DNA from: Syntrophales bacterium
GTDB taxonomy: Bacteria > Desulfobacterota > Syntrophia > Syntrophales > PHBD01
DNA: 64,000 nt
Direction: 5' to 3'
NCBI GenBank assembly: GCA_963668175.1
Contig: OY764159.1
Span: forward strand, 2,048,001 to 2,112,000
Shown here: piece by piece, positions 3,839 through 47,954 of the stretch
Position numbering within the stretch: position 1 is the stretch's first letter
Layout: each line of letters starts with the position of its first letter
The notes under the pieces: generated by a model
Database searches by the model: none
Told to the model about the DNA's origin: nothing
Seen by the model: only the letters and a program-made list of their open reading frames with translations
Translations under genes and position numbers: made by a program

Positions 3839-3928
3839 GACATTAAACAACCATTCGGCAGCGGACGGATGAATGCCCGGCCGCAGGCCGAGAGTCGAAC
3901 CATCTTCTTTTAAAGGGGGAAAAGGATT

Positions 3929-4303
3929 ATGTCGGAACAAAAAGCAACATGCTGCAGCGGAGAAGTCAAGACGCTGGTCCTGGCCTGTTCGGGCGGATCG
4001 AACGTGGGGCAGGTATCGAACAACGTCATGGTGGAACTGGACAAGAAGGGGCTGGGGAGCGGCTTCTGCCTGATCGGCCTGGGGGCGGACCTTTCGGGCT
4101 TCGTCGAAAGCTCGAAGGCGGCAAGGACGATCCTGATCGACGGCTGCACGGTGGCCTGCGGCAAGAAGGTCTTTGCCAAGCACGGCATCGAACCGTCGCA
4201 CTATTTTGTCGTGACCGATTTCGGCATCGAGAAGAAGCACGCCTTCGACACCCTCGCCGAAGAGACGGACCGGGCGCTGGGCAGAATCGTCCCGCAAATC
4301 TGA
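3929..4303 (+). CDS. Putative zinc-binding (DGC domain) protein
   Basis: [10 protein letters not shown]...C...IDGC..AC. Confidence 0.88.
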
Positions 4304-30462: not shown

Positions 30463-31482
30463 TTATTGCGTGTTCAAGATGAAATTCTTGATGGTTAGGG
30501 TCCCGCCGCCTGCATATGTACGGATCGACCCCGTGAGGGTGGTCGTTCCGGCGATACTCGAATAATCGGTGTTGTAGCCGCCTTCGATGGACACCGAGAT
30601 GTCGCGGTTTACGTTGAGGCTCTCGGTACGGCTCACGGCCTGCATCTGGATCGTTGCGCCGTTTGCCGCGGCGTCGTAGGCCGCCTGGAGCGTCGCGTAA
30701 TATGTGGGCGTCGCCCCCGCGATCCTGATCCAGGATGCGCCGATGAAGTAGGTCTCGGTCCTGATCGTTTCAAGGTTGCCCGCCAGGTCGGAGGCGAAGA
30801 ACTTCAGCGTCGTCGAGGCCGCGATGTTCAGGGCCGAGGCATATTGCGAAGACGCCGTCGTGGGCGTCGTGCCGTCGGTCGTGTAGTAGATCTTGTCGCA
30901 GCCCGAACCGGAGCCGTCGCCGCATGTCAACGCCACCGACTGGGCCGACGCAAACGACCCGCCCGCGGGCGAGGCGGACGTGGACGGCGCCACGGTGTCC
31001 AGGAGGACGGCATCGTTGAACGCCGCGGACCAGTTGCCTGCCGCGTCCTTGAACTTGGCATAGACGCCTTTGGTGCCGTCCCCCGACGCGAGGCTCCAGG
31101 ATTTGGTCGCGGCGAAGGCCTCGGGCGTGGAGTAGTTCGTGTCGTCGTTGGAGAACTTCATCTGCGCGCAGCCCGAAGGATCGCTGCACGTGAGCGTCAG
31201 GGCGACGACCGCGCTGTTCGTGGCGGATGCCCCGGCGTTGATCGAGACCGTTCCCGCGGGGGCGGTGACATCCGTGACGACTTTCTGGGTTCTGCTTCCC
31301 GTGTCGTCGTAGGTGTAAACGATCGTCGCGCCGTCGGGATAATCGACGCGCGTCAGGCGGTTTCCGTTGTCGTAGGTGTAAGAGACTGTTGCAGGGGAGG
31401 GGATTGCCGAAGCGAAAAACAACAGGACGGCTGCCAACGCTTCAGCGATCAAAATGTTTCTTCTCTTCTTTGTCATCGTCAT
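30463..31482 (-). CDS. Exported protein with YD repeat and Ig/FN3-like (CHB_HEX_C-like) domains
   Basis: Signal peptide; YTYD..NRLT.V.Y.DG..I.YTYD; D.AGN repeats; IYYTTDGT.P. Confidence 0.82.
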   Translation of the reverse strand: MTMTKKRRNILIAEALAAVLLFFASAIPSPATVSYTYDNGNRLTRVDYPDGATIVYTYDDTGSRTQKVVTDVTAPAGTVSINAGASATNSAVVALTLTCSDPSGCAQMKFSNDDTNYSTPEAFAATKSWSLASGDGTKGVYAKFKDAAGNWSAAFNDAVLLDTVAPSTSASPAGGSFASAQSVALTCGDGSGSGCDKIYYTTDGTTPTTASSQYASALNIAASTTLKFFASDLAGNLETIRTETYFIGASWIRIAGATPTYYATLQAAYDAAANGATIQMQAVSRTESLNVNRDISVSIEGGYNTDYSSIAGTTTLTGSIRTYAGGGTLTIKNFILNTQ

Positions 31483-31564
31483 TTTATGTCCCTCCGGGGT
31501 TGAACTCAATCTGTTTCTTTGATTGTAAATATTTCTATTAGTGCTTTATTCATCGTTGGATGTT

Positions 31565-31648
31565 CTAAGAGGCGAGCCCGTCGGCATGGTAGTAATAGGG
31601 CGTAAAGCTTGCCCCGTTCTTTGCCTCCACCGCCAGCGGTTCGTCGAT
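31565..31648 (-). pseudogene. Seventh orphan Rhs stub
   Basis: IDEPLAVEAKNGASFTPYYYHADGLAS* with the same upstream motif as the other orphans. Confidence 0.85.
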
Positions 31649-31771
31649 GTTATGTTGTCAAAGAACTAAAAATTCAAAGCAATAGTAACTTCAAATTCTT
31701 TTGTGAATACATTTATTTTCATAAATAGCAGAATAAGAATTAAAGTTAAATCGACGCCACTCCTGAATATC

Positions 31772-32113
31772 TCATTTGGGTTTTCCATAGGAACCGTTCT
31801 GCCAAGATTGCAGTTCGTCAATTAATTCCTCCACAGTAATGACATCATCTAACTGTGTTTCGGGAAAAGAATACACTTCCCCAACAGATTTTTCATTGCT
31901 ATTCGAATTTGCGGGCACTTCAATACCGGCACCGCTGTATGGACCATATTCCAAATAAGATTCAGCATCCTGGAAAAACCATGAAGTAACATCTTGTGTC
32001 CCCTCAAGGTTCTTCCCGATAAATACTAAAGAATTAATAATCGGGTACTCAAAATTTTTGTCCAAAAAATGCAATTGGAAATATGGTTTGCCATAAATGA
32101 AATGCTTATTCAT
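31772..32113 (-). CDS. Putative immunity protein, cassette 6
   Basis: AT-rich ORF directly after the orphan tip; AGGAG RBS. Confidence 0.7.
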   Translation of the reverse strand: MNKHFIYGKPYFQLHFLDKNFEYPIINSLVFIGKNLEGTQDVTSWFFQDAESYLEYGPYSGAGIEVPANSNSNEKSVGEVYSFPETQLDDVITVEELIDELQSWQNGSYGKPK

Positions 32114-32154
32114 ATATGCTCCTTTGCTTTTTCGGAGACTGGATTATCCTATAA

Positions 32155-32853
32155 TCAAGGTACGAATACGGGACCCCTTGAAGGTGATCCGACCCCTTCA
32201 CCTTGTCCACCGAATGAACCGCCTGGCACGAGGGGCGGAAACAATCTCCACCATGATTTATCTTCATTATTTGTTTTAGGACAATCATCATCTCCGCATT
32301 CACAATTAATGGTCTTGTCGAAATCAAGTCTTTCAAGCACGGTTCCATTCTTCTCTTTAACTCGTCTGATCTTTTTTGTCCTCTGAACTTGACACGCCAA
32401 TACGCCCTTGTTCCCGCAACGTAATTTACAGACGTCCCAGTCTGGCTTCTTGCATGGTTCGTAAGTTGTGTTCTGGTTTTGTTTCGCGAATCCATTTGGA
32501 TCTACAGAATTAATCGGATCATTTTGGACGTAAGTAGAGAGATTCACATCCCCACCTGCAAACCCGATGGGGTCTTTCGTCACGAATCGTCCAGCCTGGG
32601 GATCGTAGTAACGGGCGCGGTAGAAATACATGGACGTCTCGGCGTCGTATTCCCGGCCGGTGAACATAAAGGGTTGGCTGACATTACCGGAGCCGGAAAC
32701 CGTGACATTCCCGAAGGCATCGTAGCCGTATGTCTGCACCATCGTTCCTGTTGCATCGCTCAATCCCGTAATCGATCCCAGCCCGTCGGCATGGTAGTAA
32801 TAGGGCGTATATCCCGCCCCGCTCTTCGCCTCCACCGCCAGCGGTTCGTCGAT
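32155..32853 (-). pseudogene. Orphan Rhs C-terminal fragment 6 (Cys-rich tip)
   Basis: Core IDEPL...RYYDP..GRF...DPIG...DPNG plus unique tip; no ATG. Confidence 0.88.
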
Positions 32854-32885
32854 GTCATATTTTCAAAGAACGGTTAGCTATCCGT

Positions 32886-33028
32886 AATTAAGTATACTGT
32901 CCCCCGAATTATCTGTCCCCCGAATTATCCTAGTTTTCAAAGAACTTTCAATTACATTTATCTCAATTAAGTACCGCGTCCCCGACCAGGGGACGGGTCC
33001 CCCGAATGGGGATGCTGTCCCCGGAATT
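32886..33028. repeat. REP-like spacer motif AATTAAGTA..TGCTGTCCCC(C/G)GAATT, empty and hairpin-filled copies
   Basis: Empty 32886-32910; filled 32965-33028; further filled copies at 34451-34516, 37101-37146, 39785-39850. Confidence 0.7.
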
Positions 33029-33171
33029 ATTCTGATGCAAAAAGCAGGGGAATAGAGTCCATCAAAGCAATGCCCCTGTGGCTTAGTCTCATTAGCATCA
33101 TCCTATCCTTCCGGTGTGTAGGGTGCTTATCTATCAATTCGGTACCCTCAGATTTATGGAATAAAAGGTCA

Positions 33172-33612
33172 TTAATCCTTGACTATTTCATACTTTCCAT
33201 TTACATCAGAAGGCCTCATTCCGTCAGGATAGGACACCCAGTAGAGATTAAGGTAAATATGTTTTCGATCTGTATCAACCCATGCATAACCAATATCCCA
33301 AATAGGTGTTTTACAGGATATCTTGTCAGGACTGTAAAAAAAGCCTTTTTGGTCACGGTAAGACCAATTCTCTCCTTTGCCGGTTAAGTTGATCGTATAA
33401 CGGCTATTTTCTTTTTTTAAAAAACCGTCAGCTGTGAATAAAGTCGTCTTATTAACTTCTATTTCCATAGTATATCCACCATCAGGATTTGTGCTGACTT
33501 TATAATTTATATCTTTAGCGGAACAATTTTCTACAATAATAAAATTTAAAAACAGAATTGATGCACTCAACAAAGGTATATATTTCATAATTCTCGTTTT
33601 CTTGTTTGACAT
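33172..33612 (-). CDS. Putative exported immunity protein, cassette 5
   Basis: Signal peptide; GGAGG RBS; follows tip. Confidence 0.72.
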   Translation of the reverse strand: MSNKKTRIMKYIPLLSASILFLNFIIVENCSAKDINYKVSTNPDGGYTMEIEVNKTTLFTADGFLKKENSRYTINLTGKGENWSYRDQKGFFYSPDKISCKTPIWDIGYAWVDTDRKHIYLNLYWVSYPDGMRPSDVNGKYEIVKD

Positions 33613-33616
33613 GTAA

Positions 33617-34414
33617 TTACCTCCCCGGACATGAACACTTTTCATGCCATCTATTCAACCATATTTTCGTCCATTCTTCTGCTCTACGCCATGCAGCATC
33701 ATCATTATCTGTGCTAAAGCCATCAAAAAAATGTCCAAAACCTAAGTTTTTCCAATACCGAAAAGGCATCCAACGATATCCTTTGGCAAAGTGCACAAAA
33801 TAATCTTGTCCACGATGCATAGCCCTTTGAAAATCATTACTGCTACAATTTGCGATTGCAGCTGATACATGTGCTTCTGACAAAGATAAATCGCGAAAAT
33901 GTCTTTCCGGATTACCAAATATTGTCGGCCCCGTTACGGGGTCTGTATCTTCAAGATAGTAGTCAAAAATATTAGAGCCTGAAAAATCCCTATGCCCTTT
34001 ATAGGCAGAACCTGGACCGCCTTTGTCAAATAACCCCAATGGATCATTTCCGTTTACGGGATCATTTGATACATAAGCATACTTGTTAATACCGCCTGCA
34101 AACCCTATCGGGTCCCTGGTCACGAATCGTCCTGCCTGGGGATCGTAGTATCTCGCCCGGCCCCCTATGCAGGGGGCGCAGTAGAAGTACATCTGTGTTT
34201 CCGCGTCGTACTCCCGGCCGGTGAACATGAACGGCTGGGCGACATTTCCGGAGCCGGAAACGGTGACATTTCCGAAGGCGTCGTAGCCGTATGTCTGCAC
34301 CATCGTTCCCGTCGCATCGCTCAATCCCGTGATCGAACCCAGGCCGTCGGCATGGTAGTAATAGGGCGTGAAACTGCTCCCCGCCTTGACTTCCACCGCC
34401 AGCGGCTCGTCGAT
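33617..34414 (-). pseudogene. Orphan Rhs fragment 5 (H..QD...H tip; carries 21-nt insertion)
   Basis: Rhs core with YFY-CAPCIGG-RARYY; DPLG; tip AMHRGQDYFVH. Confidence 0.88.
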
Positions 34415-34577
34415 TTATGTTTTCAAAGAACTTTAAATTGCATCTATCTCAATGAAGTACCGCGTCCCCTGACCAGGGGACGGGTCCCCCGAATGGGGGA
34501 TGCTATTCCCGGAGTTATTGTTTCCCCCGAATTATTTGAAGATGTCGAAAATATTTGCATCCAGGAAATATTATACA

Positions 34578-35090
34578 TCACTGTTCAGTCGTTACGTTAA
34601 TCGTACTTTGTACGTTAATTTCTAATTCTTGGATTTTTTGCATCGCATAACTATCACACCACTGTTCTTCCGCTTTCGACGAAGATCCGATTAATTTATT
34701 ATTTGAATAGTGTTCAGAATAAACTACATGTCCAATCTCGTGAAATAACAAGAATATAGCATAACGTTTTGCATCAGCTAATTTCCATTTTATCAATCTA
34801 GTTTTTTTGTCGACAATACCCGAGAAGCGCTGGATTTGGTTTATATATTCTTTTTCATCTGTAAGAATCAAACTACTATAATTCTTTAGGCAGAAATTAA
34901 TTCGTATGTCATAATAATTTCCCTTTTGAACAGTCCGTCCTTCTTGAGTTGTTCTTGTATTGCAGCCAAATTCAATTAGTCGTATTTTATTTATATCTTC
35001 AATTGAAACGACGTTCTTAACTTTTGCCGCTTCACTTTTCGATAATGGATATAAATATTCGGCGGACACTTTATTGTATATGATTTTCAT
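34578..35090 (-). CDS. Putative immunity protein with HExxH motif, cassette 4
   Basis: LLFHEIGH...EEQWCD.YA; AT-rich. Confidence 0.7.
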   Translation of the reverse strand: MKIIYNKVSAEYLYPLSKSEAAKVKNVVSIEDINKIRLIEFGCNTRTTQEGRTVQKGNYYDIRINFCLKNYSSLILTDEKEYINQIQRFSGIVDKKTRLIKWKLADAKRYAIFLLFHEIGHVVYSEHYSNNKLIGSSSKAEEQWCDSYAMQKIQELEINVQSTINVTTEQ

Positions 35091-35121
35091 GTTATTCCCG
35101 TTATGTGCATGATTTAGCTAC

Positions 35122-35856
35122 TTATCTTCTGCGCGGCCCTTTAGGTCCTTTCGGTACCCTATTATGTTCTTCACCGTCAGGATGCCCAACATTTCGTTCC
35201 CTTTCTCCACATTGTTTTCGTTCATCTGCTCCTTTACGCTTATTGGGATTTTCAGGTTTTGTATATTTATCCCTTCGGCTTTCCATCGGGGCATTGATCA
35301 AATCATATAATCCTTCACCAATGCCGCCTTCATAGAGTTGATGAGAAAGCCAATCTAAAATACCTACAGCATCATTACCGGCCTGTCGATATGCTTCATC
35401 TAATTGTTTGCTCTGCGGTGTTGGAAGTACAATTGGTAACGGTATAGGACCCGGTAATGCAATTGTCTGTAGACCCTCAGGATCATAATAATTCACAGGA
35501 TCATTTAGGACAAACGAAAATAGATTTACATCACCTGCCTCGAACCCGATGGGGTCTTTCGTCACGAATCGTCCCACAACGGGGTCATAGTAGCGGGCGC
35601 GGCCCCCTATGCAGGGGGCGCAGTAAAAATACATCCCGGTTTCCGCGTCGTACTCACGCCCTGTGAACATAAAGGGCTGGGCGACATTGCCGGAGCCGGA
35701 AACCGTGACATTCCCGAAGGCATCGTAGCCGTATGTCTGCACCATCGTTCCCGTCGCATCGCTCAATCCCGTGATCGAACCCAATCCGTCGGCGTGGTAG
35801 TAATAGGGCGTGAAACTGTTCCCCGCCTTCGCTTCCACCGCCAGCGGTTCGTCGAT
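35122..35856 (-). pseudogene. Orphan Rhs fragment 4 (basic tip; 21-nt insertion)
   Basis: Core plus DPEG; tip ERNVGHPDGEEHNRVPKG. Confidence 0.88.
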
Positions 35857-35903
35857 GTTCGATTGTCAAAGAACTATCAGTTTAGGAGAAGAGAAAATCA
35901 ACA

Positions 35904-36395
35904 TTATCGCGCATCAGCGATCTTTGCATCACGGAGGATACCTTCTTTTGATCGCTGCTTTCCCATGAGATAAACAGAAAATCCATCCCTTACATTTTCA
36001 CAGTCTTTAATCGCATCAGAATAATAGCCCGCCTGATAATTCGCTTCTGCACGATAGAAGAACGAACTTTCTGTATAGTAATGATCGCTTATATCCTTTT
36101 CAATTCTAATTACTTCAGTAAAATCTTTGATCGCATCATCAATATTTCCAGATATTAAATTCCAACGACCTCTCGAGAAATAATCATCAGGTTCTATTGG
36201 TCCTATATTAATTATGGTATTGATATCTTCTATTGCGTCATTCCAACGTTCCATTCGGGCTAATATAAATGATCTTTGTTTATAGCCATCCCGTTCATTA
36301 GGATGATTCAAAATAAAATCATTACATATTTTGAGACCTTTTTCATAGAGACCAGCTTTTGCATATTGATATGCATTTTGGAGATTATCTTTCAT
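35904..36395 (-). CDS. TPR-repeat putative immunity protein, cassette 3
   Basis: Repeated Y..R.......AI.D TPR units. Confidence 0.78.
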   Translation of the reverse strand: MKDNLQNAYQYAKAGLYEKGLKICNDFILNHPNERDGYKQRSFILARMERWNDAIEDINTIINIGPIEPDDYFSRGRWNLISGNIDDAIKDFTEVIRIEKDISDHYYTESSFFYRAEANYQAGYYSDAIKDCENVRDGFSVYLMGKQRSKEGILRDAKIADAR

Positions 36396-36409
36396 TGCGC
36401 ACCTCAAGA

Positions 36410-37063
36410 CTATGGATACCACTCAACTGGATTTCCACCACATCTTTGACTAACATGTCCACGAGCACAATCATGTATATTTCCGTATCCTCCGGTAATA
36501 CCCCTGCTGGGATTAGGCTTATTCAATTCTTTTCTGCACAATTCATAAGCATCTTCCCACTCTTTATCACAATCGTCTTTGCTATCTTCACATTTGGCCG
36601 TCTTAAATAATGGCTTGGGAGGATTCTTTATCAGTTGCGAGATCGCCAATATAACTGGCGGTCCATATACAACTGCCCATTGAATAATTTGAGTATAAAG
36701 ACCTTCTGGATCGTTATATCGAATGGAATTATTTTTAACATAAGTAAACAGATTAAAATCCCCGCCTGCGAACCCAATCGGGTCTTTCGTCAAGAATCGT
36801 CCTGCCTGGGGGTCGTAGTAACGGGCGCGGTAGAAATACATGGACGTCTCGGCGTCGTATTCCCGGCCGGTGAACATAAAGGGTTGGCTGACATTACCGG
36901 AGCCGGAAACCGTGACATTCCCGAAGGCATCGTAGCCGTATGTCTGCACCATCGTACCTGTCGCATCGCTCAATCCCGTAATCGATCCCAGGCCGTCGGC
37001 GTGGTAGTAATAGGGCGTATATCCTGCCCCGCTCTTCGCCTCCACCGCCAGCGGTTCATCGAT
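36410..37063 (-). pseudogene. Orphan Rhs fragment 3
   Basis: Core plus DPEG; tip CDKEW..AYELC...CARG.VSQRCGGNPV. Confidence 0.88.
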
Positions 37064-37167
37064 GTTAGATTTTCAAAGAACTTTAAATTACGTTTTTCTC
37101 AATTAATTACCGGGTCCCCTGACTAGGGGATGCTGTTCCCGAAATTACATAGACCCAAAAAATAAAA

Positions 37168-37509
37168 CTAATTACAGACTGTTTGTTTGCCGTCTCTCAT
37201 TAATTTATATTTTCCTTCAAGTACAAAACCGCTGCGTCCATCGGGTAAGCGTATTTCGATGATCATGTAGCTTTTCACATCTACGCATTTTGTAACTGGC
37301 ACACTTTGACTAGAAGACAGCGTTGCCATCGCATCAGGATGAGGCCATGTCATTGCCTCCTTTTCAGTTGCATAGACAGCCACTATATCTTCTGCAGTTA
37401 ATGTCATTCCGTTGGTCGACAGAATACGATGGATCGAAAAAGCTATCCCGAGTATGAGTAGAATCACTATAATTATGCTGATCAGCATCTTTTTTTTCAA
37501 TGTGCCCAT
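37168..37509 (-). CDS. Putative membrane-anchored immunity protein, cassette 2
   Basis: N-terminal TM; overlaps tip stop. Confidence 0.7.
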   Translation of the reverse strand: MGTLKKKMLISIIIVILLILGIAFSIHRILSTNGMTLTAEDIVAVYATEKEAMTWPHPDAMATLSSSQSVPVTKCVDVKSYMIIEIRLPDGRSGFVLEGKYKLMRDGKQTVCN

Positions 37510-38312
37510 GGCGCGTCTCTCCAATAATCGCGTGACGGACCTTGATAGAATTTTAATCTGTCAAGGTATATCGAGTTAAGTAAATCGTTGCCGATATTGA
37601 CTGGAAAATTTGAATCCGAGAAAGTCATTCCCGTGGCCTCTTTCAAGCATTCTTTATGCGGATCTCCACAGTTATTGGTAAATGTATTGTAATCCTTGCG
37701 TTTCTTTGCATAACATTCAATCAGTTTCTTTTCTTGATCAGGTGTAAGCCTAAGAATCGTACCAACACCGGAACGAAACTTCTCTTGGTTCTGAGCGTAG
37801 CTTGAAGCACTCGGATTACTATCCCATCCTCCTGGAGCCCAAGAGTAGTTTATTCCATTTACATTGGCTGATATATGACCAAATGAAGAACTACCCCATG
37901 TAACCGGCTGCCAGACAATTATTTCTGTATAGAATCCAAAGGAATCAACATAATTGACTGTGTTGTTTCCCACATACCCATACAAATTAAAATCCCCGCC
38001 CTCAAACCCGATGGGGTCTTTCGTCACGAATCGTCCTGCCTGGGGATCGTAGTATCTCGCCCGGCCCCCTATGCAGGGGGCGCAGTAGAAATACATGAAC
38101 GTTTCCGCGTCGTACTCACGGCCGGTGAACATGAAGGGCTGCGAGACGACGCCACTGGCCGTGACTTGGCCAAAGGCATCATAGCCGTATGTCTGGACCA
38201 TCGTTCCCGTTGCATCGCTCAATCCCGTGATCGATCCCAGGCCGTCGGCATGGTAGTAGTAGGGCGTATATCCCGCCCCGCTCTTGACCTCCACCGCCAG
38301 CGCCTCGTCGAT
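37497..38312 (-). pseudogene. Orphan Rhs fragment 2 (permuted papain-like tip; 21-nt insertion)
   Basis: Tip FGHI....G..YSW...Y....NNC (His before Cys). Confidence 0.88.
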
Positions 38313-38360
38313 TTATGTTTTCAAAGAACGGTTAGTTAACTTGGTTTGACCCGTTGAGCG

Positions 38361-38951
38361 TCAAATATAATCAAAAAAGAAATCATTAACTGATAGCAAG
38401 ATGTTTGAGCCACACACCACAAGCGGAGAATGTGGAGCATGCTCAGGTATTAAATCATCGAATAATTGAGCCATTTTCTCGGCACTTCGAATATCTTCAA
38501 TTAATCCATAACTGTTTAATATTAAATGATTGTCTTCAATTAGATTTTCCTTAGAAAAGCGCAAGCTAAATCCGTAAATCGCACTTGTCTGCGTCATAGG
38601 ATCAACTACATCAAACCCGACAAAATCCCAGCCCTCTCGCATGTCAATCTCCGGGAGAGGTTGTGGCCTTGAGACATTACCTCTTAACAGGCGTACAACT
38701 AAATCGGTCGGCAGATCGAATGCAATAATGCGGGCTCCTAAAGGAAATTCCAATGATGAGATACTCGATGGATCAACAAAAAAAAGGTTGATCCCAGATC
38801 GATACTCTCGAGAATTCTCATAGATATTCTCATAGCGCACATCATTGTCATATGAAGTCATAAATAAGTTCTTCAGAGATGAGCTCTTTCGAATGTCAAA
38901 TCCAATAACGGTTCTTTCTGCTGCACAGAGTTTATCGGTTTTTTCTATCAT
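38361..38951 (-). CDS. Putative immunity protein, cassette 1
   Basis: Starts 2 nt after tip stop; GFDI..W.FVGFDV..LN.YGL..PEHAP. Confidence 0.72.
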   Translation of the reverse strand: MIEKTDKLCAAERTVIGFDIRKSSSLKNLFMTSYDNDVRYENIYENSREYRSGINLFFVDPSSISSLEFPLGARIIAFDLPTDLVVRLLRGNVSRPQPLPEIDMREGWDFVGFDVVDPMTQTSAIYGFSLRFSKENLIEDNHLILNSYGLIEDIRSAEKMAQLFDDLIPEHAPHSPLVVCGSNILLSVNDFFFDYI

Positions 38952-38952
38952 C

Positions 38953-39747
38953 TCATCTGCTCCTACGGCCTTGAAAATCTGGGTAACTCGAACAGGGTTT
39001 CATGCCTGCCAGTGGTTCTTCCATAACACCAATACCAACCTTCCCACCAAGATATTGCCACTCACATTTCCCGGAAACCTTGAACATTTGGTAGATGTGA
39101 TAATGATTATTTAACGTTCCGTGACCATGTGTAGTGTGGGGTCCTTCGTAACACTTTGTTCCTACAGGTGGTTTGCAGTCTTGATCACTATTGCATTTCT
39201 TAGATGCAGTATCTTGTATCGAGTCAATCCAATTCTTGATATTTTCCCTTGGTCGACTAAAAAATTCTGTGAAGTCCTGCCATTGTTTCGGCGATAACTT
39301 TATTACGGGTATACCCCAAGATATGGGACCAAATCCTACTCGACTTCCTTCTGCGGAATCTAACCCGTCAGGGTCTATCAAGTTAACAGGCGAGTTCTCA
39401 ACATAAGCATAGAGATTAACATCCCCGCCTGCGAACCCGATGGGGTCTTTCGTCACGAATCGTCCAGCCTGGGGGTCGTAGTAACGGGCGCGGCCCCCTA
39501 TGCAGGGGGCGCAGTAAAAATACATCTGTGTTTCGGAATCGTACTCCCGGCCGGTGAACATGAACGGCTGGCTGACATTTCCGGAGCCGGAAACCGCGAC
39601 ATTCCCAAAGGCGTCGTAGCCGTATGTCTGCACCATCGTTCCCGTCGCATCGCTCAATCCCGTGATCGAACCCAGGCCGTCGGCATGGTAGTAATAGGGC
39701 GTATATCCCGCCCCGCTCTTCACTTCCACCGCCAGCGGCTCGTCGAT
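38953..39747 (-). pseudogene. Orphan Rhs fragment 1 (His-rich tip; 21-nt insertion)
   Basis: Core plus DPDG; tip HTTHGH...HYH. Confidence 0.88.
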
Positions 39748-39882
39748 GTTCGATTGTCAAAGAACTATCAATTACATCTATCTCAATGAAGTACCGCGTC
39801 CCCTGACCAGGGGACGGGTTCCCCGAATGGGGGATGCTGTCCCCGGAATTCTTGTCCTGCTTTCTTCAAGAAGTGGTCTATT

Positions 39883-40482
39883 TTAATTTGATTTTCTTCC
39901 AATATTTAGAATTATCTTTTTTAATAGTATTGCGCATGCAATAATAAAAATAGATTGAAACACCGCCAGCGCAGACATACTAAACCAAATACTCATCACT
40001 CCTTGAATTGCATAAGGGAACAAATTTACAAAGTATTCCCTTATTATACTGGAGATATCTATTAATACAGTTGGAGCAAGATTGACGAACATATTTGATG
40101 GAACAATTACAGGGAAATAGGTTACATAAACTACAATATCAGCGCCGTTTGATCTCTCCCAGTGAGACATGCCCATTGAAAACGACAGGAAGAATAATAA
40201 CGCAGAAATATCAATAGCGAACCAGATAACCATTAATTTATAAAGTCGTTTCCGGCTGATATAAAGAACAGTAGAAATTATCCAAACAAACCATACAAAC
40301 GGTATATATAAGACCAGCCAAGCGAAAAGAGTCTTCTCCGTACCAGCAAAAAAGAAGCTTATAAAAGGCGCGAGAATAGCGATAATGGTAATAACGATCA
40401 GGAAATTCATGAAAGCATCTTCAATACTAAAACGGCGGAGTGAGTAAAATCTATCTTTTATAATAGTACTAAGCCATTTCAT
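39883..40482 (-). CDS. Multi-TM cognate immunity protein of full-length Rhs
   Basis: ATGA overlap with Rhs stop; about 5 hydrophobic segments; AT-rich. Confidence 0.78.
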   Translation of the reverse strand: MKWLSTIIKDRFYSLRRFSIEDAFMNFLIVITIIAILAPFISFFFAGTEKTLFAWLVLYIPFVWFVWIISTVLYISRKRLYKLMVIWFAIDISALLFFLSFSMGMSHWERSNGADIVVYVTYFPVIVPSNMFVNLAPTVLIDISSIIREYFVNLFPYAIQGVMSIWFSMSALAVFQSIFIIACAILLKKIILNIGRKSN

Positions 40483-43400
40483 TGGAAGCATTCCTTTCTG
40501 CATGAATCATAAATGCCCTGCTGAACACGCTTACAATCTGCACCGTATTTCACACTGTAAAACAATACTTCTTGTTCTAATCTTTGCCATAGCCTTTCCG
40601 CACACTTGTCCATGCACTTGTTATTGTCATCTGCACCACAGACTGATTTTCCGTGACTAACATTTTCCCCGTCTTTCAAAATCTTTCCTTTTACGATACC
40701 GATAATTGCATTATCTATCCTGGAATTAGGATCTCTGCCATATCCGCGACACACTTGCTTCCCGTCTGAGCCAGTCCAGCAATGATATTCATGTGCCGCC
40801 GGACCAACCTGAGCACCCCAAAGAGCATCCAAGCCTGAGCTGCATTGCTGTAATAGTCCTTCTGGATCTATAAAATTCGCTGGATTGTTTTGTACATATC
40901 CAAACAGATTTATGTTTCCACCCCTGAACCCAATGGGGTCTTTCGTCACGAATCGTCCTGCCTGGGGATCGTAGTATCTCGCGCGGTAGAAGTACATTCC
41001 GGTTTCGGAATCGTACTCCCGGCCGGTGAACATGAATGGCTGGCTGACGCCGCCTGTCGCAACGACATTTCCGAAGGCATCGTAGCCGTATGTCTGCACC
41101 ATCGTACCCGTCGCATCGCTCAATCCCGTGATCGATCCCAGGCCGTCGGCATGGTAGTAATAGGGCGTATAGCTTGCCCCGCTCTTTACCTCCACCGCCA
41201 GCGGTTCGTCGATGTTCGGCCCGTGGGTATACCGGGCTGTTATTTCATTGCTACTATTATACTCTAAGATAATCGATTTGTCATCAAAAATGTAATACGT
41301 TGTACGCGGGCAGGTGTTCGGGCTTGTGCAGAGATTTCCGATGCCGTCGCTGACGACGGTCTTCGACACCCTGCGGCCGAAGGGGTCGTAGGCGAAAGTC
41401 AACTGCCGGACCTGGCCGTTCCTGTTCATCTGAATGCCCGTCAGGCGGTTCTCGTCGTCGTACGTGTAGGTCGTCGTTTCGTTCCCGGGGGGGACGGCGT
41501 CGGCGTTTTTCGTCAGGCGGTTGCCCACCTCGTCGTAGGTGTAGGCCTCCGTCTGGTGGACGCCCCCCGTGGGCGCGGCCTGCGTCAGGCGGTAGACGTC
41601 GTCGTAGGCATAGGCGTAGCTCTCCGCCGGTGCGGTCCGGGTGAGGCGGTTGCCCGCGTTGTCGTGGGTGTAGGTTACGCTGTCGACGGGCGCGCTGTTC
41701 TTCGTTGTCGCAATCCCCGTGAGGCGGCTGCTGGCGTCGTAGCCGTAGGCGGAGACGGTCCCGTTGGGGAGGGTCCGGGACATTCTCCTGTTCGCCGCGT
41801 CGTAGGCGAAGTCGAAGTTCCCCAGGGCCGTGGCGATACGGGCGGGGAGGCCGTTGTTGTCGTAGGTGTAGGTCAGGGTCCTGTTCTCCGGCGTGACCAT
41901 CGTCTGCCGGTTGCCCGCCGCGTCGTAGGTGTACCGGATCGTCCGGCTGTTCCCATCGACGATTTGCGTGACGCGGTTGTTCGCGTCGTAGGTGAAGGTA
42001 TAGGCTATGGCGGCGTTCCCCGCATAGGTCATGTTGCCCGCGTCGTCGTACTGGAAAGTCGCCGTGGAGCTGTCCGAATAGGTCTTGCCCGTGAGGCGGT
42101 TGTTGCCGTCGTACGTATAGGTGACGGTCTTGCTGTCGGGCCGGGTCAGGGTGTGCAGGTTGCCGTTCGCATCGTACGTATACGTCGTCGTCTTGCTCAG
42201 CGGGTCCGTCTCCCTGGTCAGTTCCCCGCCGGTGTTGTATTCGTACGCGGTGATATGGCTTTTCGCGTCCGTCACCGCCGTCAGCTTGTCCACGCCCGTG
42301 CCGCAGCCGGAGCAGCCGGAGCCGCTGTAGGCGAGATTGGTGATGTTGCCCAGGGCGTCGGTGATCCGCGTGAGCTGGTCGCGGTAATTGTAGAGGTAGT
42401 GAGCGGCTTTCGTGTTGGCGTCGGTGGACGACAGGCGGTTGCCCTTATAGTCGTAGGTATAGGCCGTGACGCGGTTACCGGGGTCCGTTGCCTGCGTGAG
42501 CTGGTTCAGGCTGTTGTACTGGAAATACGTGGTGTTGCCCAGGGCGTCCTTCTGCGAAAGCATGTTGCCCAGGCCGTCGTAAGTCATCTCGACGACGCCC
42601 AGCTTCGGGTCGGTGACGAACCGCAGGTTGTCGTACTGGTCGTATTCGAGGGTCGTGGTTTTGTTCAGGGGGTTCGTGATGCTTGCGATGTTCCCCCTGG
42701 CGTCGTAACCATAGTACGTGACGGCGTTCCCCGGCGCGGCGACGGACGTCAGGTTGCCCGCCGTGTCGTAGCCGTACTGCGTGACGTTGCTCCGGGGGTC
42801 GGTGACGGTCTCCACCAGGTTCAGGGCGTTGTACGTGTACGCCGTGGTCTTGTTCAGCGGGTCCGTCGCGGTGTGGAGGTTGCCGTTGGCATAGTAGGTG
42901 TATGTCGTGTAGCCCCCGCCGGGGTCCGTCTTTTTCGTGATGTTCCGGTTGGCGTCGTATTCGTAGGTCGTCTTGTGGCCCTGCGGGTCCGTCTTCTCGA
43001 TGAGGACGCCCAGGGCCTGATCGTACTTGTACGTCCAGACGCCGTTGTCCCTCTCCGTCACGAGCGTCGTGGCCGTCGCCGGGTCGTACGCCACGGTCCG
43101 CGTCTTGCTTTCCGGGTCCAGGGCCTGCGTCACTTTATGATCGGCGTCGTAGGTGTACCGGGTCTCGTTGCCGTCCGGGTCGGTCTTCGTCAGCATGAAG
43201 AGCTGGGCGTCGTACGTGAAGCCCCAGGTCTTTGTCCCCATGGGGGTCTGGGAGGCGATTTGCGTGAGGGCGTCGCCCGTGTACGTGAAGGTGTGGGTGT
43301 TGTTGTTGGGGTCGGTGATCGTGTCGATCCGGTTCCCCGCGTTGTACGCGAAGCCGATGGACTTGCCCCTGGGGTCCGTCACGGTTTCGAGGTAGCCGTT

Positions 43401-44903
43401 GCCGTCGTATGTCAGGGAGAGGGTGTTGCCGTTCCTGTCGGCGATGCTCGCGAGCTTATCGGCGTTGAACGTATAGACGGTGCCGTCCCTGAAGGCGAGG
43501 GTGCCCACGTCGTCCTGGTTTACGCTGAGCACCGGGTAGGGGGAGTATTCGGGCCTGTAGACGCCGCCGTCCGGATACAGGACGGTCTTACCGCCGTCCC
43601 CCCAGACGACCGTGTAGTAATCGTTGTTCTGGAGGCTGATATTATAGGAATGCGTCCAGCCCGTGGCGAGGAGGCCGTTGGCCCTGTCCGTGCTGTTGTA
43701 GGTCAGGGCGAGGTCCGGCATGAGGCGGGAATTGGGCACCCTGAAGAGCGTCTGGGTGTGTTGAAGATTGCCGCTCGCCACATTCGCCGTCGAGCCGAAA
43801 ACGAGCTTGAGCATCTTGGGGCCGCACTTGTCGCCATCGCTGCTTTCCGTAATAGTGAAGGTTGTGGTGGCAATTGCCGTACATGATCCTACTGTGGCGG
43901 TCAGGACGGCGGCATAGGTATTTCCGGGATTCAGCGGTCTGGTGCTTGCTATGCTTTTCCAGGTTCCGTCGGCGCTGGTGCCCGTACCGCTCAGGATCGG
44001 TACGTCGTCTACTGCGATATTCCAGGTTATCCCGGCGGGATTCGAGCCGGCGATGGTGCCGTTGAAAGTGATCGTTCCGCCGGTGCTGGGATCGATCTTT
44101 GTGGACGAAGCGCTAAACGACGAGATCGAAAGGCTGCACGGGGACGTGAGGGCCGCGGGACAGCAGCCCGCGGTTTTCATGGCAGCCGTTCTTTTATCGT
44201 AAGGACTATGTTCAATGTTATAGCGTGCGGACCCGGGAAGAAAATAATAGGCACAGGTGTTTCCATCTCTACGGCATAACATGAGATTTATACCATCTCC
44301 ACCTGCAGTATACAAATCGTTATAGGCTGTGCTGTCATGCACACAATAACTATAATCTCCTGGATGACAGCCCCTGTCATTACAGATATCGGCGTCCTTG
44401 GTCCCGCTTATGCAGCACTTTGCCGCCGATTCTGTTCCATCGCACTTATACCCGGTGGTGCATATACTGGCCGTATAAACACTACATCCTGTACAATATT
44501 GTGGACAGCCAAATTGGCAATCCGAATATTTGCTAACGGTAAAATCGGAAAAGGTGCGATACGCTTCTGCCGTTGAGGTGGAACCGTTCACCGCAATCTG
44601 CACTTCAGCAATCTGGCCGCATTCGTCGGTGACGCGGACGACGGGATTGCTGGCGCAGTTGGGATTCGATGAGGGGGCCGTGTAGACGCCGGCCTGTGTG
44701 ATGCTCCCGCCGCCGGTAACCGACCAGGTTTTGGTTCCGTCGCACCCGCCGGAGGCCGTCAGCGTCTGGCTGGTGTTGACGGCCATGGTCGGCTGCGGCA
44801 CCGAAATCGTCAGCGGAACGGCCCAGGCCGCGCCTGTCCAAAGCAGAAGAAAACCGTACATAACGGCCGCCGGCAGAAGATATCGTCTCGCCTGTCTTTT
44901 CAT
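40479..44903 (-). CDS. Full-length Rhs/YD-repeat polymorphic toxin with Sec-type signal peptide
   Basis: MKRQARR..AAWA signal; ANVASGNL..YNS..GWTHSY (DUF6531-like); many YD repeats; FTGREYD..RYYDP..GRF..DPEG; variable tip. Confidence 0.95.
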   Translation of the reverse strand: MKRQARRYLLPAAVMYGFLLLWTGAAWAVPLTISVPQPTMAVNTSQTLTASGGCDGTKTWSVTGGGSITQAGVYTAPSSNPNCASNPVVRVTDECGQIAEVQIAVNGSTSTAEAYRTFSDFTVSKYSDCQFGCPQYCTGCSVYTASICTTGYKCDGTESAAKCCISGTKDADICNDRGCHPGDYSYCVHDSTAYNDLYTAGGDGINLMLCRRDGNTCAYYFLPGSARYNIEHSPYDKRTAAMKTAGCCPAALTSPCSLSISSFSASSTKIDPSTGGTITFNGTIAGSNPAGITWNIAVDDVPILSGTGTSADGTWKSIASTRPLNPGNTYAAVLTATVGSCTAIATTTFTITESSDGDKCGPKMLKLVFGSTANVASGNLQHTQTLFRVPNSRLMPDLALTYNSTDRANGLLATGWTHSYNISLQNNDYYTVVWGDGGKTVLYPDGGVYRPEYSPYPVLSVNQDDVGTLAFRDGTVYTFNADKLASIADRNGNTLSLTYDGNGYLETVTDPRGKSIGFAYNAGNRIDTITDPNNNTHTFTYTGDALTQIASQTPMGTKTWGFTYDAQLFMLTKTDPDGNETRYTYDADHKVTQALDPESKTRTVAYDPATATTLVTERDNGVWTYKYDQALGVLIEKTDPQGHKTTYEYDANRNITKKTDPGGGYTTYTYYANGNLHTATDPLNKTTAYTYNALNLVETVTDPRSNVTQYGYDTAGNLTSVAAPGNAVTYYGYDARGNIASITNPLNKTTTLEYDQYDNLRFVTDPKLGVVEMTYDGLGNMLSQKDALGNTTYFQYNSLNQLTQATDPGNRVTAYTYDYKGNRLSSTDANTKAAHYLYNYRDQLTRITDALGNITNLAYSGSGCSGCGTGVDKLTAVTDAKSHITAYEYNTGGELTRETDPLSKTTTYTYDANGNLHTLTRPDSKTVTYTYDGNNRLTGKTYSDSSTATFQYDDAGNMTYAGNAAIAYTFTYDANNRVTQIVDGNSRTIRYTYDAAGNRQTMVTPENRTLTYTYDNNGLPARIATALGNFDFAYDAANRRMSRTLPNGTVSAYGYDASSRLTGIATTKNSAPVDSVTYTHDNAGNRLTRTAPAESYAYAYDDVYRLTQAAPTGGVHQTEAYTYDEVGNRLTKNADAVPPGNETTTYTYDDENRLTGIQMNRNGQVRQLTFAYDPFGRRVSKTVVSDGIGNLCTSPNTCPRTTYYIFDDKSIILEYNSSNEITARYTHGPNIDEPLAVEVKSGASYTPYYYHADGLGSITGLSDATGTMVQTYGYDAFGNVVATGGVSQPFMFTGREYDSETGMYFYRARYYDPQAGRFVTKDPIGFRGGNINLFGYVQNNPANFIDPEGLLQQCSSGLDALWGAQVGPAAHEYHCWTGSDGKQVCRGYGRDPNSRIDNAIIGIVKGKILKDGENVSHGKSVCGADDNNKCMDKCAERLWQRLEQEVLFYSVKYGADCKRVQQGIYDSCRKECFQ

Positions 44904-45281
44904 TGCCCCTGTCTCCCGATTGTGGATTGCGGTTCGGCGGCGTTCCGTCCGTGGCGGTTTCGGCGGCTTCGCGGCGAAGCCTCGAAGGCCGCGGCCGGGG
45001 GACGCGCCTCATCGGGAGGGATGATATCACCGGGTTTGGCGGCGGATGGGCGGATAGCGGGCTTTCGCGGGGTTTCCGGGGGGGCTTCGGGGGGTGTTTC
45101 GGGGGTTATCGGGGTGTTATTTTTCTTGACGGGTTTTCGGATACGGTCAGGGGCGGACGCACGGACGAAGCGGTGAACGGGCTGCCCGTTTACGGACCCT
45201 GACAGCCTTTTTATGGAAGGGCCGGCGGCTTTTTTCCTGTGAAAACGGTCGAAGCGGGTTCCCGAAAAACGTAATTATCGC

Positions 45282-45524
45282 TCACTCCCCGCCGTGTTCC
45301 GGTCTGCCGTTCTCCCGGACGGAAAAGCGCGTGTAGGCCCTGAAGTACTCGTCGATGTTGTCCGCGTAGGCGAGCCAGCGGCTGTCCTCGAAGCGGGCGG
45401 GCATGCCCCGGCCGATGTACTTCTTGAACATATATTCGGAGCAGGGCTCGCCGGATATCTTCCGGATGTACCCCTGGATCGCCTGCTTGCTCGTCAAAAG
45501 CTTGATCTGATTTTCCTCGCCCAT
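45282..45524 (-). CDS. Small phage-like DNA-binding (excisionase-like) protein
   Basis: 80 aa, GGAGG RBS, ..KYI.RGMPA....RW.A....IDE.F pattern. Confidence 0.55.
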   Translation of the reverse strand: MGEENQIKLLTSKQAIQGYIRKISGEPCSEYMFKKYIGRGMPARFEDSRWLAYADNIDEYFRAYTRFSVRENGRPEHGGE

Positions 45525-45785
45525 GGCTTCGCCTCCCGTCGGCTTTTTGCCGGACCGTTTCCCCGATTCTTTGTCGTCGTCCGATGACCGCAAGTATTCC
45601 ATAAATGAAATTATTAATCAACAAATAATTGCACAAATAGAATATGCGGCCGGGCTGCGCCGGACGTCGTTATGTGCAAGGCGGCGTTGCAATGGCGTTT
45701 ATTGATTACGTAAGGTGCGAAAGATATGGGCGATTATTCCTGACGAGGCACGAAGGAGGCCGGGGATCGGAGGGATTCGGCGCGC

Positions 45786-46607
45786 TTATCGGCCCGCCTT
45801 CCGGTTCTTCAGGGCTCTTGCGGCCTTCACGAGGACGTAGGCCGTAAGCAGCCCGCCGGCAAAAATACCGAAGAATAGGACCGTTGAAAGGACCGTCGCT
45901 TTCAGGTGATCCAGGGAGAAAAACGCCAGGTCCTTTACCAGTCCGGGAAAGAAGAGGAATCCTAAAATCACCTGAACAAGGTGGCATCCCAGCGCCAGGA
46001 AAAATGCGAGCCAAAATAGCTGCCGAACAGGAAGCTTCATCACGGCGGCGAACAACAGAGCGGTCATGGCTGCGAAGAAGACAACGTAGGTTATATCCTT
46101 GCCGGGATCGGCAAAACGGCTCTGGGCAATGCCGATAAAGGCGAGAAGGGAAACGAGCTCGATCAGGAGGCCCCACGCCGTTATTTTTGTCAGATCTTTC
46201 TTTATCAGCGGTTGTGCGGTTTTCGCAATCTTCACAAGAACGAAGGCCGAAAACAGCCCGCCCGCGGAGTGAGCTAAATATATAACCGTCCCGCGGACTA
46301 TGTGTTCTAAGTGAAGAAGGGAAAAGAACTCTATGCCTTTCACCAGGCCGGGAAAGAAGAGGTAGCCTAAAATATCCTCAATGATTTTACACCCCAGTGC
46401 GAGGAAAAACGCGAGTAGAAAGAGATGCCGCACAGACAGACGCAGAACGGCGTAAATCGATAGGGCGGCCATAGCCGCATAGGAGACGATTTCGACGATT
46501 TCCTTGCCGGGATCGGCCAGGTTGGAATGGGCGATGCGGATGAAAACAACAATGGCGATGAGCTCGATCAAGAGACCCCATGCCGCGATTTTCGCCAGAT
46601 CTTTCAT
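45786..46607 (-). CDS. Membrane protein made of two tandem ~135-aa repeats (putative immunity)
   Basis: KDLAKIAAWGLLIEL..ADPGK..LFFPGLVK repeated as KDLTKITAWGLLIEL..ADPGK..LFFPGLVK; ATGA-coupled to upstream gene. Confidence 0.75.
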   Translation of the reverse strand: MKDLAKIAAWGLLIELIAIVVFIRIAHSNLADPGKEIVEIVSYAAMAALSIYAVLRLSVRHLFLLAFFLALGCKIIEDILGYLFFPGLVKGIEFFSLLHLEHIVRGTVIYLAHSAGGLFSAFVLVKIAKTAQPLIKKDLTKITAWGLLIELVSLLAFIGIAQSRFADPGKDITYVVFFAAMTALLFAAVMKLPVRQLFWLAFFLALGCHLVQVILGFLFFPGLVKDLAFFSLDHLKATVLSTVLFFGIFAGGLLTAYVLVKAARALKNRKAGR

Positions 46608-47137
46608 TGTCTCACGATGACAAGAATGGGCTCCATATGCATCATTAATTTCGGTAATAACTCCTTATCACGATTCCCGATATTAATGCAACCCCCTGTT
46701 CCGATATGTGTGCCGCCGTGTAAATAGAATCCTGTTCTACCATAGGTGTCGGTTCCATCGGGAAGGAGTGCCGCCCGGTAGTTACCCCATGCTGCTCGAT
46801 CTTGAGGTCTCACGTCTTCGATTTTTGAGGGATCTAAAAGATATGTTCCGGGAGGAATGGGGCCTTTCCAGGGGATAGATGGATCTTTCTCTCCTGGTTG
46901 GCCGCTCTGAGCTGGATAGGAACCTATGAGCTTTCCACCCGAGCCGTAATAATGGACGTATCCGTCCTCGAAAATCAGCATGGGCCGCCGCCAGAGGTGT
47001 TCCCTGACGGTTACGCCGTCCTGATCGACGTCCTCAATAATATCCCGATCCTTGTCGTAATAACGATATTTCCCATCCTCAAAGATCAGGACAGGGGAAT
47101 TAGAACTCTCATTTTTGTTGTTCGTACTGTCTGCCAT
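46604..47137 (-). CDS. Tlde1/DUF2778-like L,D-transpeptidase-fold protein
   Basis: SG...GPIPPG.Y...R.GFYLHGG.....GCI. Confidence 0.78.
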   Translation of the reverse strand: MADSTNNKNESSNSPVLIFEDGKYRYYDKDRDIIEDVDQDGVTVREHLWRRPMLIFEDGYVHYYGSGGKLIGSYPAQSGQPGEKDPSIPWKGPIPPGTYLLDPSKIEDVRPQDRAAWGNYRAALLPDGTDTYGRTGFYLHGGTHIGTGGCINIGNRDKELLPKLMMHMEPILVIVRQ

Positions 47138-47564
47138 GATTTGTTTGTCTCCTTTCTTGGCCCGCCTCTCAAGGCGGGGCCGCAGGGGGAGGTTCTTAAA
47201 AAAATGCTTCGGACCCTGCGGCGTCAGGTGGGTAAATAGGTAAATCTTAACGTCCGGGAATGGCGGCGGTTCGCGGGATATCCGGGGGACGCCGCCGAAT
47301 GCGGGGCATGTAACAACAAAAGGGAGCCGGCGGCTTTTTTGTTACGGTCAACCTTTATCCATACACACAGGCCGGGAGATGTCTCGGGGCAGGAGAACGT
47401 GCGGCCGTTTTCGATGCCGATAAACGCTGTCCGCACACGCAAGCAGCACCGTGCGGGTACGGCGGCACGAAAGCAACCGGCCGCACCGCGCCGCATCGAT
47501 CTCCATGCTCCGCGCATGGACAACACGGCGCAGGAAAACCCTCCGCGCTGCCATGAAAAAGCGA

Positions 47565-47954
47565 TCAAAAGGGCAGGCCGTTTCCGTCGCCGTTTTCGCC
47601 GTTCGGGCCGTCGCCATTACCGGCCGCCTTCCTGCTTTCCAGGATTCGGAGCGACGTGGCGACGATCTCCGTCGTCATGCGGCGGGAACCGTCCCGGTCC
47701 TCCCAGGGGCGCGTCCGGATCTTGCCCTCGATGTAGAGCAGGGCCCCCCGCTCGGCGCCGCTTGCGGCATGCTCCGCGAGGTCGCCCTTGACGACGACCT
47801 TGTGCCATTCCGTCCGGCTCTGGGGCTTGCCTTCCTTGTCCTTCCACCGGTCCACTGTGGCGACGGACAGGCTCACGACCATGACGGCGTCGGGTGTGTA
47901 GCGCACTTCGGGGTCGATGCCGAGGCGGCCGACGAGGAAGACCTTGTTGATCAT
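47565..47954 (-). CDS. ssb: Single-stranded DNA-binding protein
   Basis: MINKVFLVGRLG.DPE.RY, TEWH, YIEG..RTR.W, LPF tail. Confidence 0.92.
   Translation of the reverse strand: MINKVFLVGRLGIDPEVRYTPDAVMVVSLSVATVDRWKDKEGKPQSRTEWHKVVVKGDLAEHAASGAERGALLYIEGKIRTRPWEDRDGSRRMTTEIVATSLRILESRKAAGNGDGPNGENGDGNGLPF

Follow-up and report, generated by a model that had tools for sequence, protein, structure and literature searches.

Studies of polymorphic toxins have yet to settle how orphan cassettes stay useful, since the immunity gene must be active next to a toxin that is kept silent; the locus described here bears on this question. The window (the whole 64-kb stretch of DNA that was analysed, positions 2,048,001 to 2,112,000 of contig OY764159.1) lies in the closed 4.57-Mb genome of a Syntrophales bacterium, labelled G000 in the comparisons below, and carries on its minus strand a full-length Rhs gene followed by a row of start-less Rhs fragments, all but the last, a short remnant, with a toxin tip of their own. 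A 12-nt motif that matches the boxA of the host's own ribosomal RNA (rRNA) operon, rrn, stands at the head of each fragment, which suggests that the rRNA anti-termination machinery may be used to transcribe through silent toxins.

Array structure and position of the motif

The locus is an Rhs orphan cassette array, in which the full-length Rhs gene is followed by fragments that share the 3' end of the core and carry different tips and small open reading frames (ORFs). Read along the minus strand, it comprises the full-length gene, a small overlapping ORF, six complete cassettes and one remnant. A cassette consists of a core fragment with homology to the final ~270 nt of the Rhs core, an AT-rich C-terminal tip that is unlike those of the other cassettes, and a small ORF that mostly has its own Shine-Dalgarno sequence. 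With orphan 1 as the query, DNA identity of the core is 84-100% among the six full orphans (the 100% hit being orphan 1 itself), 85% in the 68-nt match to the orphan 7 remnant and 81% in the full-length gene. The features are as follows, with bit scores taken from the rrn matrix described in the next section.

41256..41284, minus: sigma-70-like site ATGACA-17-TATAAT within the full-length gene (11/12 match; ends 40 nt before the start of orphan homology)
40479..44903, minus: full-length Rhs gene, 1474 aa, ending in a C-terminal toxin tip of its own (ORF; Pfam RHS_repeat, E 1.5e-97, TEN_YD-shell, DUF6531)
39883..40503, minus: putative immunity gene for the toxin of the full-length gene (ORF that overlaps the Rhs stop; AGGA 9 nt before the ATG at 40482; no Pfam family matched)
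39766..39850, minus: G+C-rich hairpin spacer element with GGGGAC/GTCCCC arms, stems predicted (further copies at ~37082-37152, 34432-34533 and 32946-33030)
39754..39765, minus: boxA-like motif 1, GTTCTTTGACAA (23.3 bits; best non-rRNA score in the genome, tied with motif 4)
38953..39747, minus: orphan 1, Rhs core 3' fragment with a distinct toxin tip, start-less
38361..38951, minus: putative immunity ORF 1, 196 aa (AGGAG 8 nt before the ATG)
38318..38329, minus: boxA-like motif 2, GTTCTTTGAAAA
37497..38312, minus: orphan 2
37168..37524, minus: putative immunity ORF 2, 118 aa (from the ORF list)
37070..37081, minus: boxA-like motif 3, GTTCTTTGAAAA (19.2 bits)
36410..37063, minus: orphan 3
35904..36422, minus: putative immunity ORF 3, TPR protein (Pfam TPR_2, E 8.8e-11)
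35863..35874, minus: boxA-like motif 4, GTTCTTTGACAA (23.3 bits)
35122..35856, minus: orphan 4
34578..35090, minus: putative immunity ORF 4, 170 aa (from the ORF list)
34420..34431, minus: boxA-like motif 5, GTTCTTTGAAAA
33617..34414, minus: orphan 5
33172..33645, minus: putative immunity ORF 5, 157 aa (GGAGG 7 nt before the ATG at 33612)
32934..32945, minus: extra boxA-like motif before spacer repeats, without an Rhs fragment (inside the spacer of a promoter-like site, TTGAAA-16-GATAAT, 32951..32924)
32860..32871, minus: boxA-like motif 6, GTTCTTTGAAAA
32155..32853, minus: orphan 6
31772..32113, minus: putative immunity ORF 6, 113 aa (AGGAG 5 nt before the ATG)
31655..31666, minus: boxA-like motif 7, GTTCTTTGACAA (16.1 bits)
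31565..31648, minus: orphan 7, an 84-nt Rhs-core remnant ending in TAG

The pattern GTTCTTTGAMAA has eight exact matches in the window, all on the minus strand, which is the Rhs coding strand; the expected number was 0.03, and none of 100 shuffles reached eight. An earlier sequence-only reading of this DNA had listed these eight positions, including the extra copy, and a motif search re-found every one at its exact coordinates. It had also placed the motif 5-6 nt upstream of seven orphans, and the gap is indeed 5 nt in two copies and 6 nt in five, after which ATCGAYGA marks the start of Rhs-core homology; at the equivalent site the full-length gene reads ...CACGGGCCGAACATCGACGAACCG and lacks the motif, as had been reported. 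The claim that the orphans have an in-frame stop within four codons upstream, no ATG and no clear Shine-Dalgarno sequence was confirmed as well: a stop ends 0-3 codons before the ATC codon in all seven (the motif's own TGA in five, TAA in two), the first in-frame ATG lies at +111 nt without a Shine-Dalgarno match, and a GTG at +18 is without one in six of the seven, orphan 2 having GAGG 8 nt upstream. The orphans lack a translation start of their own. Two figures of that reading needed adjustment, since what it counted as seven orphan fragments are six full cassettes and a remnant of merely 84 nt (orphan 7), and the untranslated stretches that it put at 0.65-0.8 kb are of that order but measure 0.66-0.82 kb.

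Eleven of the 12 motif columns are invariant across the eight copies, compared with 2 of the 45 columns upstream (mean pairwise identity 0.42). The gap between motif and core occurs in five different spellings, and the Rhs core that follows has 57 of 80 columns invariant, with a longest invariant run of 13. Because the upstream columns and the gap are variable, and because the G+C-rich hairpin element precedes only four of the eight copies (the other four being preceded by unrelated sequence), the motif is an island of conservation and not the edge of a longer conserved repeat.

Match to the host rrn boxA

The genome has a single rrn operon. Its 16S-23S spacer carries a boxA reading GTTCTTTGACAA after two tRNA genes and ~50 nt before the 23S gene (context GCTGTTCTTTGACAATTGCATATCG), and its 16S leader carries one reading GTTCTTTGGAAA after the second promoter (context CTGGTTCTTTGGAAATTGAATAG). 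The spacer boxA is identical to the C form of the array motif at 12/12 positions and the leader boxA agrees with the A form at 11/12, so that the boxA-like identity proposed from the window is borne out by the operon against which it was to be judged. The spelling GTTCTTTGACAA was also found in all six genomes of the order for which a spacer was recovered. Exact copies of the motif number 11 in the 4.57-Mb genome, comprising the eight of the array, the rrn spacer and two in reading frames (judged by eye); with 9/11 copies in rrn or the array, the motif is rare outside these two places.

To score sites by resemblance to rRNA signals, we used a 20-nt matrix trained solely on 29 rrn leader and spacer sites of the phylum, one training row of which was mis-picked. 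Genome-wide, four sites reached at least 20 bits, namely the 16S leader (34.5), the spacer (30.5) and the motifs of orphans 1 and 4 (23.3 each), and 12 reached at least 16 bits, four of them at orphans. The downstream extension typical of the phylum's rrn sites (..GAATAG or ..CATAT) is partly matched in the array, where four of the eight copies score at least 16 bits; it is matched well in orphans 1 and 4 only, which read ...GACAATCGAACAT. Genes for Rho and NusB are present in the genome, and at eight one-mismatch sites elsewhere in it no Nus-factor gene was evident downstream. The motif is most likely a real NusB/NusE boxA.

Promoters and terminators in the array

The sigma-70-like site in the full-length gene lies within an AT-rich island (41238-41297), the lowest-GC 60-nt window of the gene's first 3950 nt (23% vs 60%); across the genome, sites with at least 11/12 matches have a density of 20.9 per Mb of strand. 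This island may be an internal promoter, like the P2 promoter inside Salmonella rhs, and the orphans carry boxA roughly where the full-length gene carries the island. Counted on both strands over 15 kb, promoter-like sites number 29, against 19.4 +/- 4.2 in shuffles. The scan found no promoter-like site in the orphan core fragments and no intrinsic-terminator-like site on the coding strand between modules.

Rhs arrays of related genomes

A protein search with the core fragment gave matches in 73 of 339 genomes of the class, all within one order. From these, 20 array loci of 14 genomes were taken, their orphan junctions were placed by self-comparison, and motifs were scored with the rrn-trained matrix at a floor of 13 bits. 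The motif recurs in a second Rhs lineage, that of G032, a genome of another family whose Rhs core is 38-41% identical and whose spacer boxA is GTTCTTTGACAA: 14 sense-strand copies of GTTCTTTGACAT, an 11/12 version of the motif, are spread over three arrays (5 + 7 + 2). In one of these arrays (L066), which has modules of 2.6-3.3 kb, each copy ends 10 nt before orphan homology, and that homology starts ~298 codons further upstream in Rhs than in G000; the full-length gene of G032 is without the motif at the equivalent place. Single cases come from two genomes whose own rrn was not assembled, G107 with an rrn-like boxA (GCTCTTTAACAATTGCATG, 20.1 bits) 40 nt before its orphan and G122 with one (GATCTTTGATAAAGAAATAT, 19.0 bits) 78 nt before one of two orphans.

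Outside the order, the Rhs core was found in 57 of 401 sampled genomes of the phylum, and rrn boxAs were recovered for four of the five other-order genomes for which they were sought. Strings resembling GTTCTTGATAAG in G541 and GTTCTTTATTGA in G636 lie upstream of orphans and were rejected as boxAs, being unlike the rrn boxAs of those genomes and scoring below 13 bits. A search with a motif-free Rhs pattern, ATCGAYGARSCNCTGGCGGTGGA, across the genome and metagenome collections returned 14 and 20 loci, respectively, none of which is an orphan of the G000 type; they are unrelated genes encoding IDEALAVE-like peptides, or full-length Rhs genes.

One array of another order (locus L151 on G513:C5) shows the opposite design to that of G000, its orphans being preceded not by boxA but by a terminator-like G+C-rich hairpin and T-run, at oriented positions of about 2050-2190 and about 3900-4045.

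The spacers of G000 and G032 have a block in common, TTC(C/G)GGGGACAGTATACTTAATT (about 24/25 nt).

This spacer block, also read as ATTCCGGGGACA(C/G)CATACTTAATT, is dispersed in G000, with ~15 further copies that include those at 2047083, 2609819, 2660196-2660941 and 2901291. At C1:2168066-2171568, outside the window, the block and an inverted partner form ~70-nt imperfect palindromes between small same-strand ORFs, which resemble the attC sites of an integrase-less cassette cluster, with no tyrosine recombinase nearby. An integron was considered on account of these palindromes and discarded, as no integrase lies near either the palindromes or the array.

The motif in insertion-sequence leaders

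The extended 13-mer AGTTCTTTGAMAW occurs mostly in 0-3 copies per genome among the 339 genomes (0-2 for a reversed-pattern control), with outliers in G220 (19 copies), G032 (18), G252 (14), G091 and G120 (9 each) and G000, G238, G066 and G164 (8 each). Outside G000 and G032 we inspected 20 copies in 18 loci, and 19 of them are part of dispersed repeats, frequently at a distance of about 70-110 nt from the end of a contig. At least four repeat types carry the motif 30-110 nt inside one end, on the sense strand and ahead of the element's long ORF; the loci with repeats resembling insertion sequences (ISs) are L133-L137 (G220), L146-L147 (G120), L144-L145 (G164), L139-L143 (G238 and G252), L148 (G091) and L150 (G066). 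Two of the types were checked by Pfam and both are transposase-like. In one, the ORF encodes a DDE transposase (DDE_Tnp_1_6, DUF772, DDE_Tnp_1) and its ATG follows the end of the motif at 80 nt; in the other, it encodes an HTH_23 protein, whose integrase-core match narrowly misses the cut-off, and the distance from motif end to ATG is 53 nt. Several IS leaders continue ...GACAATCGAATAG, spelled as in the spacer boxA of G513 and similar to the extension seen in the 16S leader, and an rrn-like extension, ..AATCGAATAG, is found in several of the IS-like repeats. In these copies the motif sits inside the leader and not at the element termini. That unrelated mobile elements carry the host rrn signal internally and in the sense orientation points to a conserved host factor, and not to recombinases specific to each element, as what recognises it.

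Surroundings of the array and assembly

Beyond the last boxA copy and the 84-nt remnant, at 30463-31509 on the minus strand, is a gene with its own ribosome-binding site whose 348-aa product has CHB_HEX_C_1 and Fn3_assoc domains and one weak RHS repeat; the gene of a Laminin_G_3 protein comes after it. Upstream of the Rhs gene (45211-48859, minus strand) are ORFs with a Tlde1/YkuD-like domain, an SSB and an ERF-family recombinase, which give the region the look of a phage-like remnant or of what is left of a mobile element. Among the window ORFs scanned there were no type VI secretion genes, and an Rfam scan of the window gave no family at gathering score.

Within the orphan cores, an in-frame 21-nt palindromic insert is present in four of the seven (1, 2, 4 and 5), where FYCAPCIGGRARYYDP replaces FYRARYYDP, at about 39500-39525, 38075-38100, 35610-35635 and 34175-34200 on the minus strand; further copies of its 27-28-mer lie in other parts of the genome, among them C1:2576014, 2851437 and 1347596. 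Contigs made from the four public runs, which come from one sample within one study and are not listed as RNA, broke at the repeated cores and gave few, low-depth joints with sides of 21-35 nt. At 38431, in the 3' part of putative immunity ORF 1, two bases of the window are absent from the contigs of all four runs.

Discussion

The reading that we favour, to which we assign about an even probability, is that the boxA is functional and that, each time untranslated toxin sequence is entered, it brings NusB/NusE to the array transcript and so protects elongation from Rho. On this reading the 12-mer would be a genuine boxA, copied from the signal of the host rRNA operon and set at the head of each start-less cassette. 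The array would be transcribed as one transcript from upstream, by the Rhs promoter or by the promoter-like AT island at 41284..41256. Wherever the polymerase passes from a translated immunity gene to the 0.66-0.82 kb of toxin sequence that is not translated, the boxA just transcribed would bind NusB and NusE (S10), and its effect would be anti-termination: the Nus-loaded elongation complex would resist Rho, so that transcription would still reach the next immunity gene, equipped with a ribosome-binding site of its own. The toxins would stay untranslated until homologous recombination in the ~270-nt core fuses one of them to the full-length gene.

The array motif resembles the rrn boxA, the binding site of the ribosomal anti-termination complex (NusB, NusE/S10, NusA, NusG, SuhB), in its sequence, in its sense-strand position at the head of what would be a long untranslated RNA, in its several copies per presumed transcription unit (a leader and a spacer copy in rrn) and perhaps, in four of the eight array copies, in a predicted hairpin ~40 nt upstream. 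It differs in that it heads degenerate protein-coding cassettes set among translated immunity genes instead of structural RNA, and in that it matches the downstream extension of rrn sites only in part. A second parallel is the array of clustered regularly interspaced short palindromic repeats (CRISPR), where, according to the passage of PMC7862264 that cites Stringer et al. 2020, a boxA upstream of the array promotes the expression of distal spacers and is proposed to prevent premature Rho termination. Both cases, as far as that passage describes them, have a boxA before a long untranslated array of horizontally acquired units; the CRISPR case has one boxA in the leader, whereas the Rhs array has one per cassette, between translated genes, in toxin-immunity modules. 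Salmonella Typhimurium offers a parallel in gene arrangement, since the passages of PMC7043789 on its rhs locus describe a full-length rhs followed by 3'-core fragments with a different tip and an immunity gene, which can be fused by homologous recombination. The core fragments of G000 differ in being without a promoter-like site and headed by boxA, and those passages on Salmonella report no boxA.

Several observations weigh against the anti-termination reading. Low-stringency promoter-like sites (9/12) lie within ~160 nt upstream of immunity genes 1, 2 and 4 (three of six), and because of them the immunity genes may have promoters of their own; in Salmonella Typhimurium, according to the same passages of PMC7043789, a promoter within the conserved rhs core or frame drives the orphan toxin and its immunity gene. 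The sense strands of the orphans contain more G (0.26-0.28) than C (0.21-0.23), and 80-nt windows rich in C and poor in G are few or absent; such strands are not obvious substrates for Rho loading, which is a weak and not a decisive point. Predicted RNA folds leave the motif no more single-stranded than its surroundings (unpaired probability 0.27-0.63, vs window means of 0.36-0.44; in the top 10% in one of eight copies). The passages of Baniulyte et al. 2017 (PMC5725501) on Nus-factor targets beyond rRNA indicate that a boxA can repress as well as anti-terminate. Among the relatives, the orphans of 12 other genomes of the same order were without an rrn-like boxA (nothing of at least 13 bits in G123, G143, G126, G155, G093, G250, G241, G242, G006, G005 and G174), nor was one found before any orphan of 12 array loci from 11 genomes outside it. 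The enrichment that the sequence-only reading had expected before orphans of related genomes is thus strong in G032 and appears as single cases in G107 and G122, but is missing from the other genomes examined; a boxA heads every cassette in G000 and G032, the two long arrays, and not in Rhs arrays generally. Moreover, as G000 and G032 share a second spacer element, the block named above, their arrays may not be independent inventions and the spacers may be a shared mobile unit, although such a unit leaves the invariance of the 12-mer alone unexplained.

The last point leads to the rival that the motif has no RNA function and is either an inherited cassette edge or a DNA site for a host protein or for recombination, moved together with the spacer repeat, so that it resembles boxA by coincidence. 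The junction is the same in all seven orphans, as fits their descent from one ancestral junction, the motif is absent from most Rhs arrays, and the block shared by G000 and G032 is dispersed ~15 times in G000 and is palindromic between small ORFs, like cassette boundaries. Nevertheless, we regard this explanation as unlikely: flanking sequence has diverged beyond alignment in about half of the copies and the gap varies, yet the motif has stayed invariant at 11 of its 12 columns, and it has the spelling of the rrn spacer boxA, with nine of its 11 genomic copies in rrn or the array. A DNA site is further disfavoured by the position of the motif within IS leaders and not at their termini. As for the recombinase site that the sequence-only reading had offered as its own alternative, it found no support, whether as an integron attC, a shufflon or a dif-like site: the 12-mer lacks a palindromic structure, a scan of 56 window ORFs for site-specific recombinases turned up no such family, and the five matches to PF00589 (tyrosine recombinases) in the genome, at 0.53, 1.44, 2.98 and 3.39 Mb, are all more than 500 kb from the array.

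A boxA that is functional could also act in the opposite direction, with the Nus complex silencing the cassette as at suhB by blocking spurious translation initiation on the toxin fragment and promoting Rho termination. The passages of PMC5725501 on these genes state that boxA and the Nus factors repress suhB, where translation is inhibited and Rho termination follows, and directly repress a ParE-like toxin gene of Citrobacter koseri, so that there, as in the array, a non-rRNA boxA precedes a toxin-related gene. Those boxAs, as described, lie in 5' untranslated regions within ~50 nt of a start codon and repress translation, whereas the Rhs orphans have no start codon or ribosome-binding site adjoining the motif to repress, and if transcription ended at each cassette, the immunity genes further along would no longer be reached, unless they have promoters of their own. 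We consider silencing in the array quite improbable; such a role may fit the transposase leaders better, where the 13-mer stands 53 and 80 nt before the start codons of two Pfam-checked ISs, genes that are usually kept low. Least credible is that the TTGACA/TTGAAA of the motif serves as the -35 element of a promoter starting a transcript at each cassette, which we judge very improbable even though TTGACA is the consensus -35 hexamer and the P2 promoter of the host rrn, GTTCTTGACAA, falls short of the motif by a single T. At 16-18 nt downstream there is G+C-rich Rhs coding sequence in which no TAnnnT hexamer occurs, the scan lists no sigma-70-like site that uses the TTGAMA of any of the eight copies as its first hexamer, and the IS leaders, read by eye, are likewise without a -10 element.

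Taken as a whole, the interpretation given by the sequence-only reading is partly supported. Non-rRNA boxAs are already known, and a boxA at Rhs orphan arrays is without report in the literature searched, where full-text searches brought up no paper in which Rhs or orphan toxin arrays are tied to boxA or Nus factors. We tentatively raise a wider possibility, itself rather doubtful, that the mobile DNA of this order has co-opted the host rRNA boxA, in Rhs arrays of at least two families and in several unrelated IS families, and that one boxA per cassette makes an 8-kb, mostly untranslated library of toxin tips a Rho-proof transcript from which an immunity bank is expressed without translation of the toxins. 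If this is true, an rRNA anti-termination signal in each cassette would be a concrete answer to the problem of keeping immunity on and toxin off, and the non-rRNA targets of the Nus factors, which include suhB, the ParE-like toxin gene and CRISPR arrays, would extend to loci of interbacterial competition. That transposase leaders carry this signal too suggests that mobile DNA is connected more widely with the Nus/Rho system; the capture of a boxA would be a route for foreign, poorly translated DNA to escape Rho-mediated silencing.

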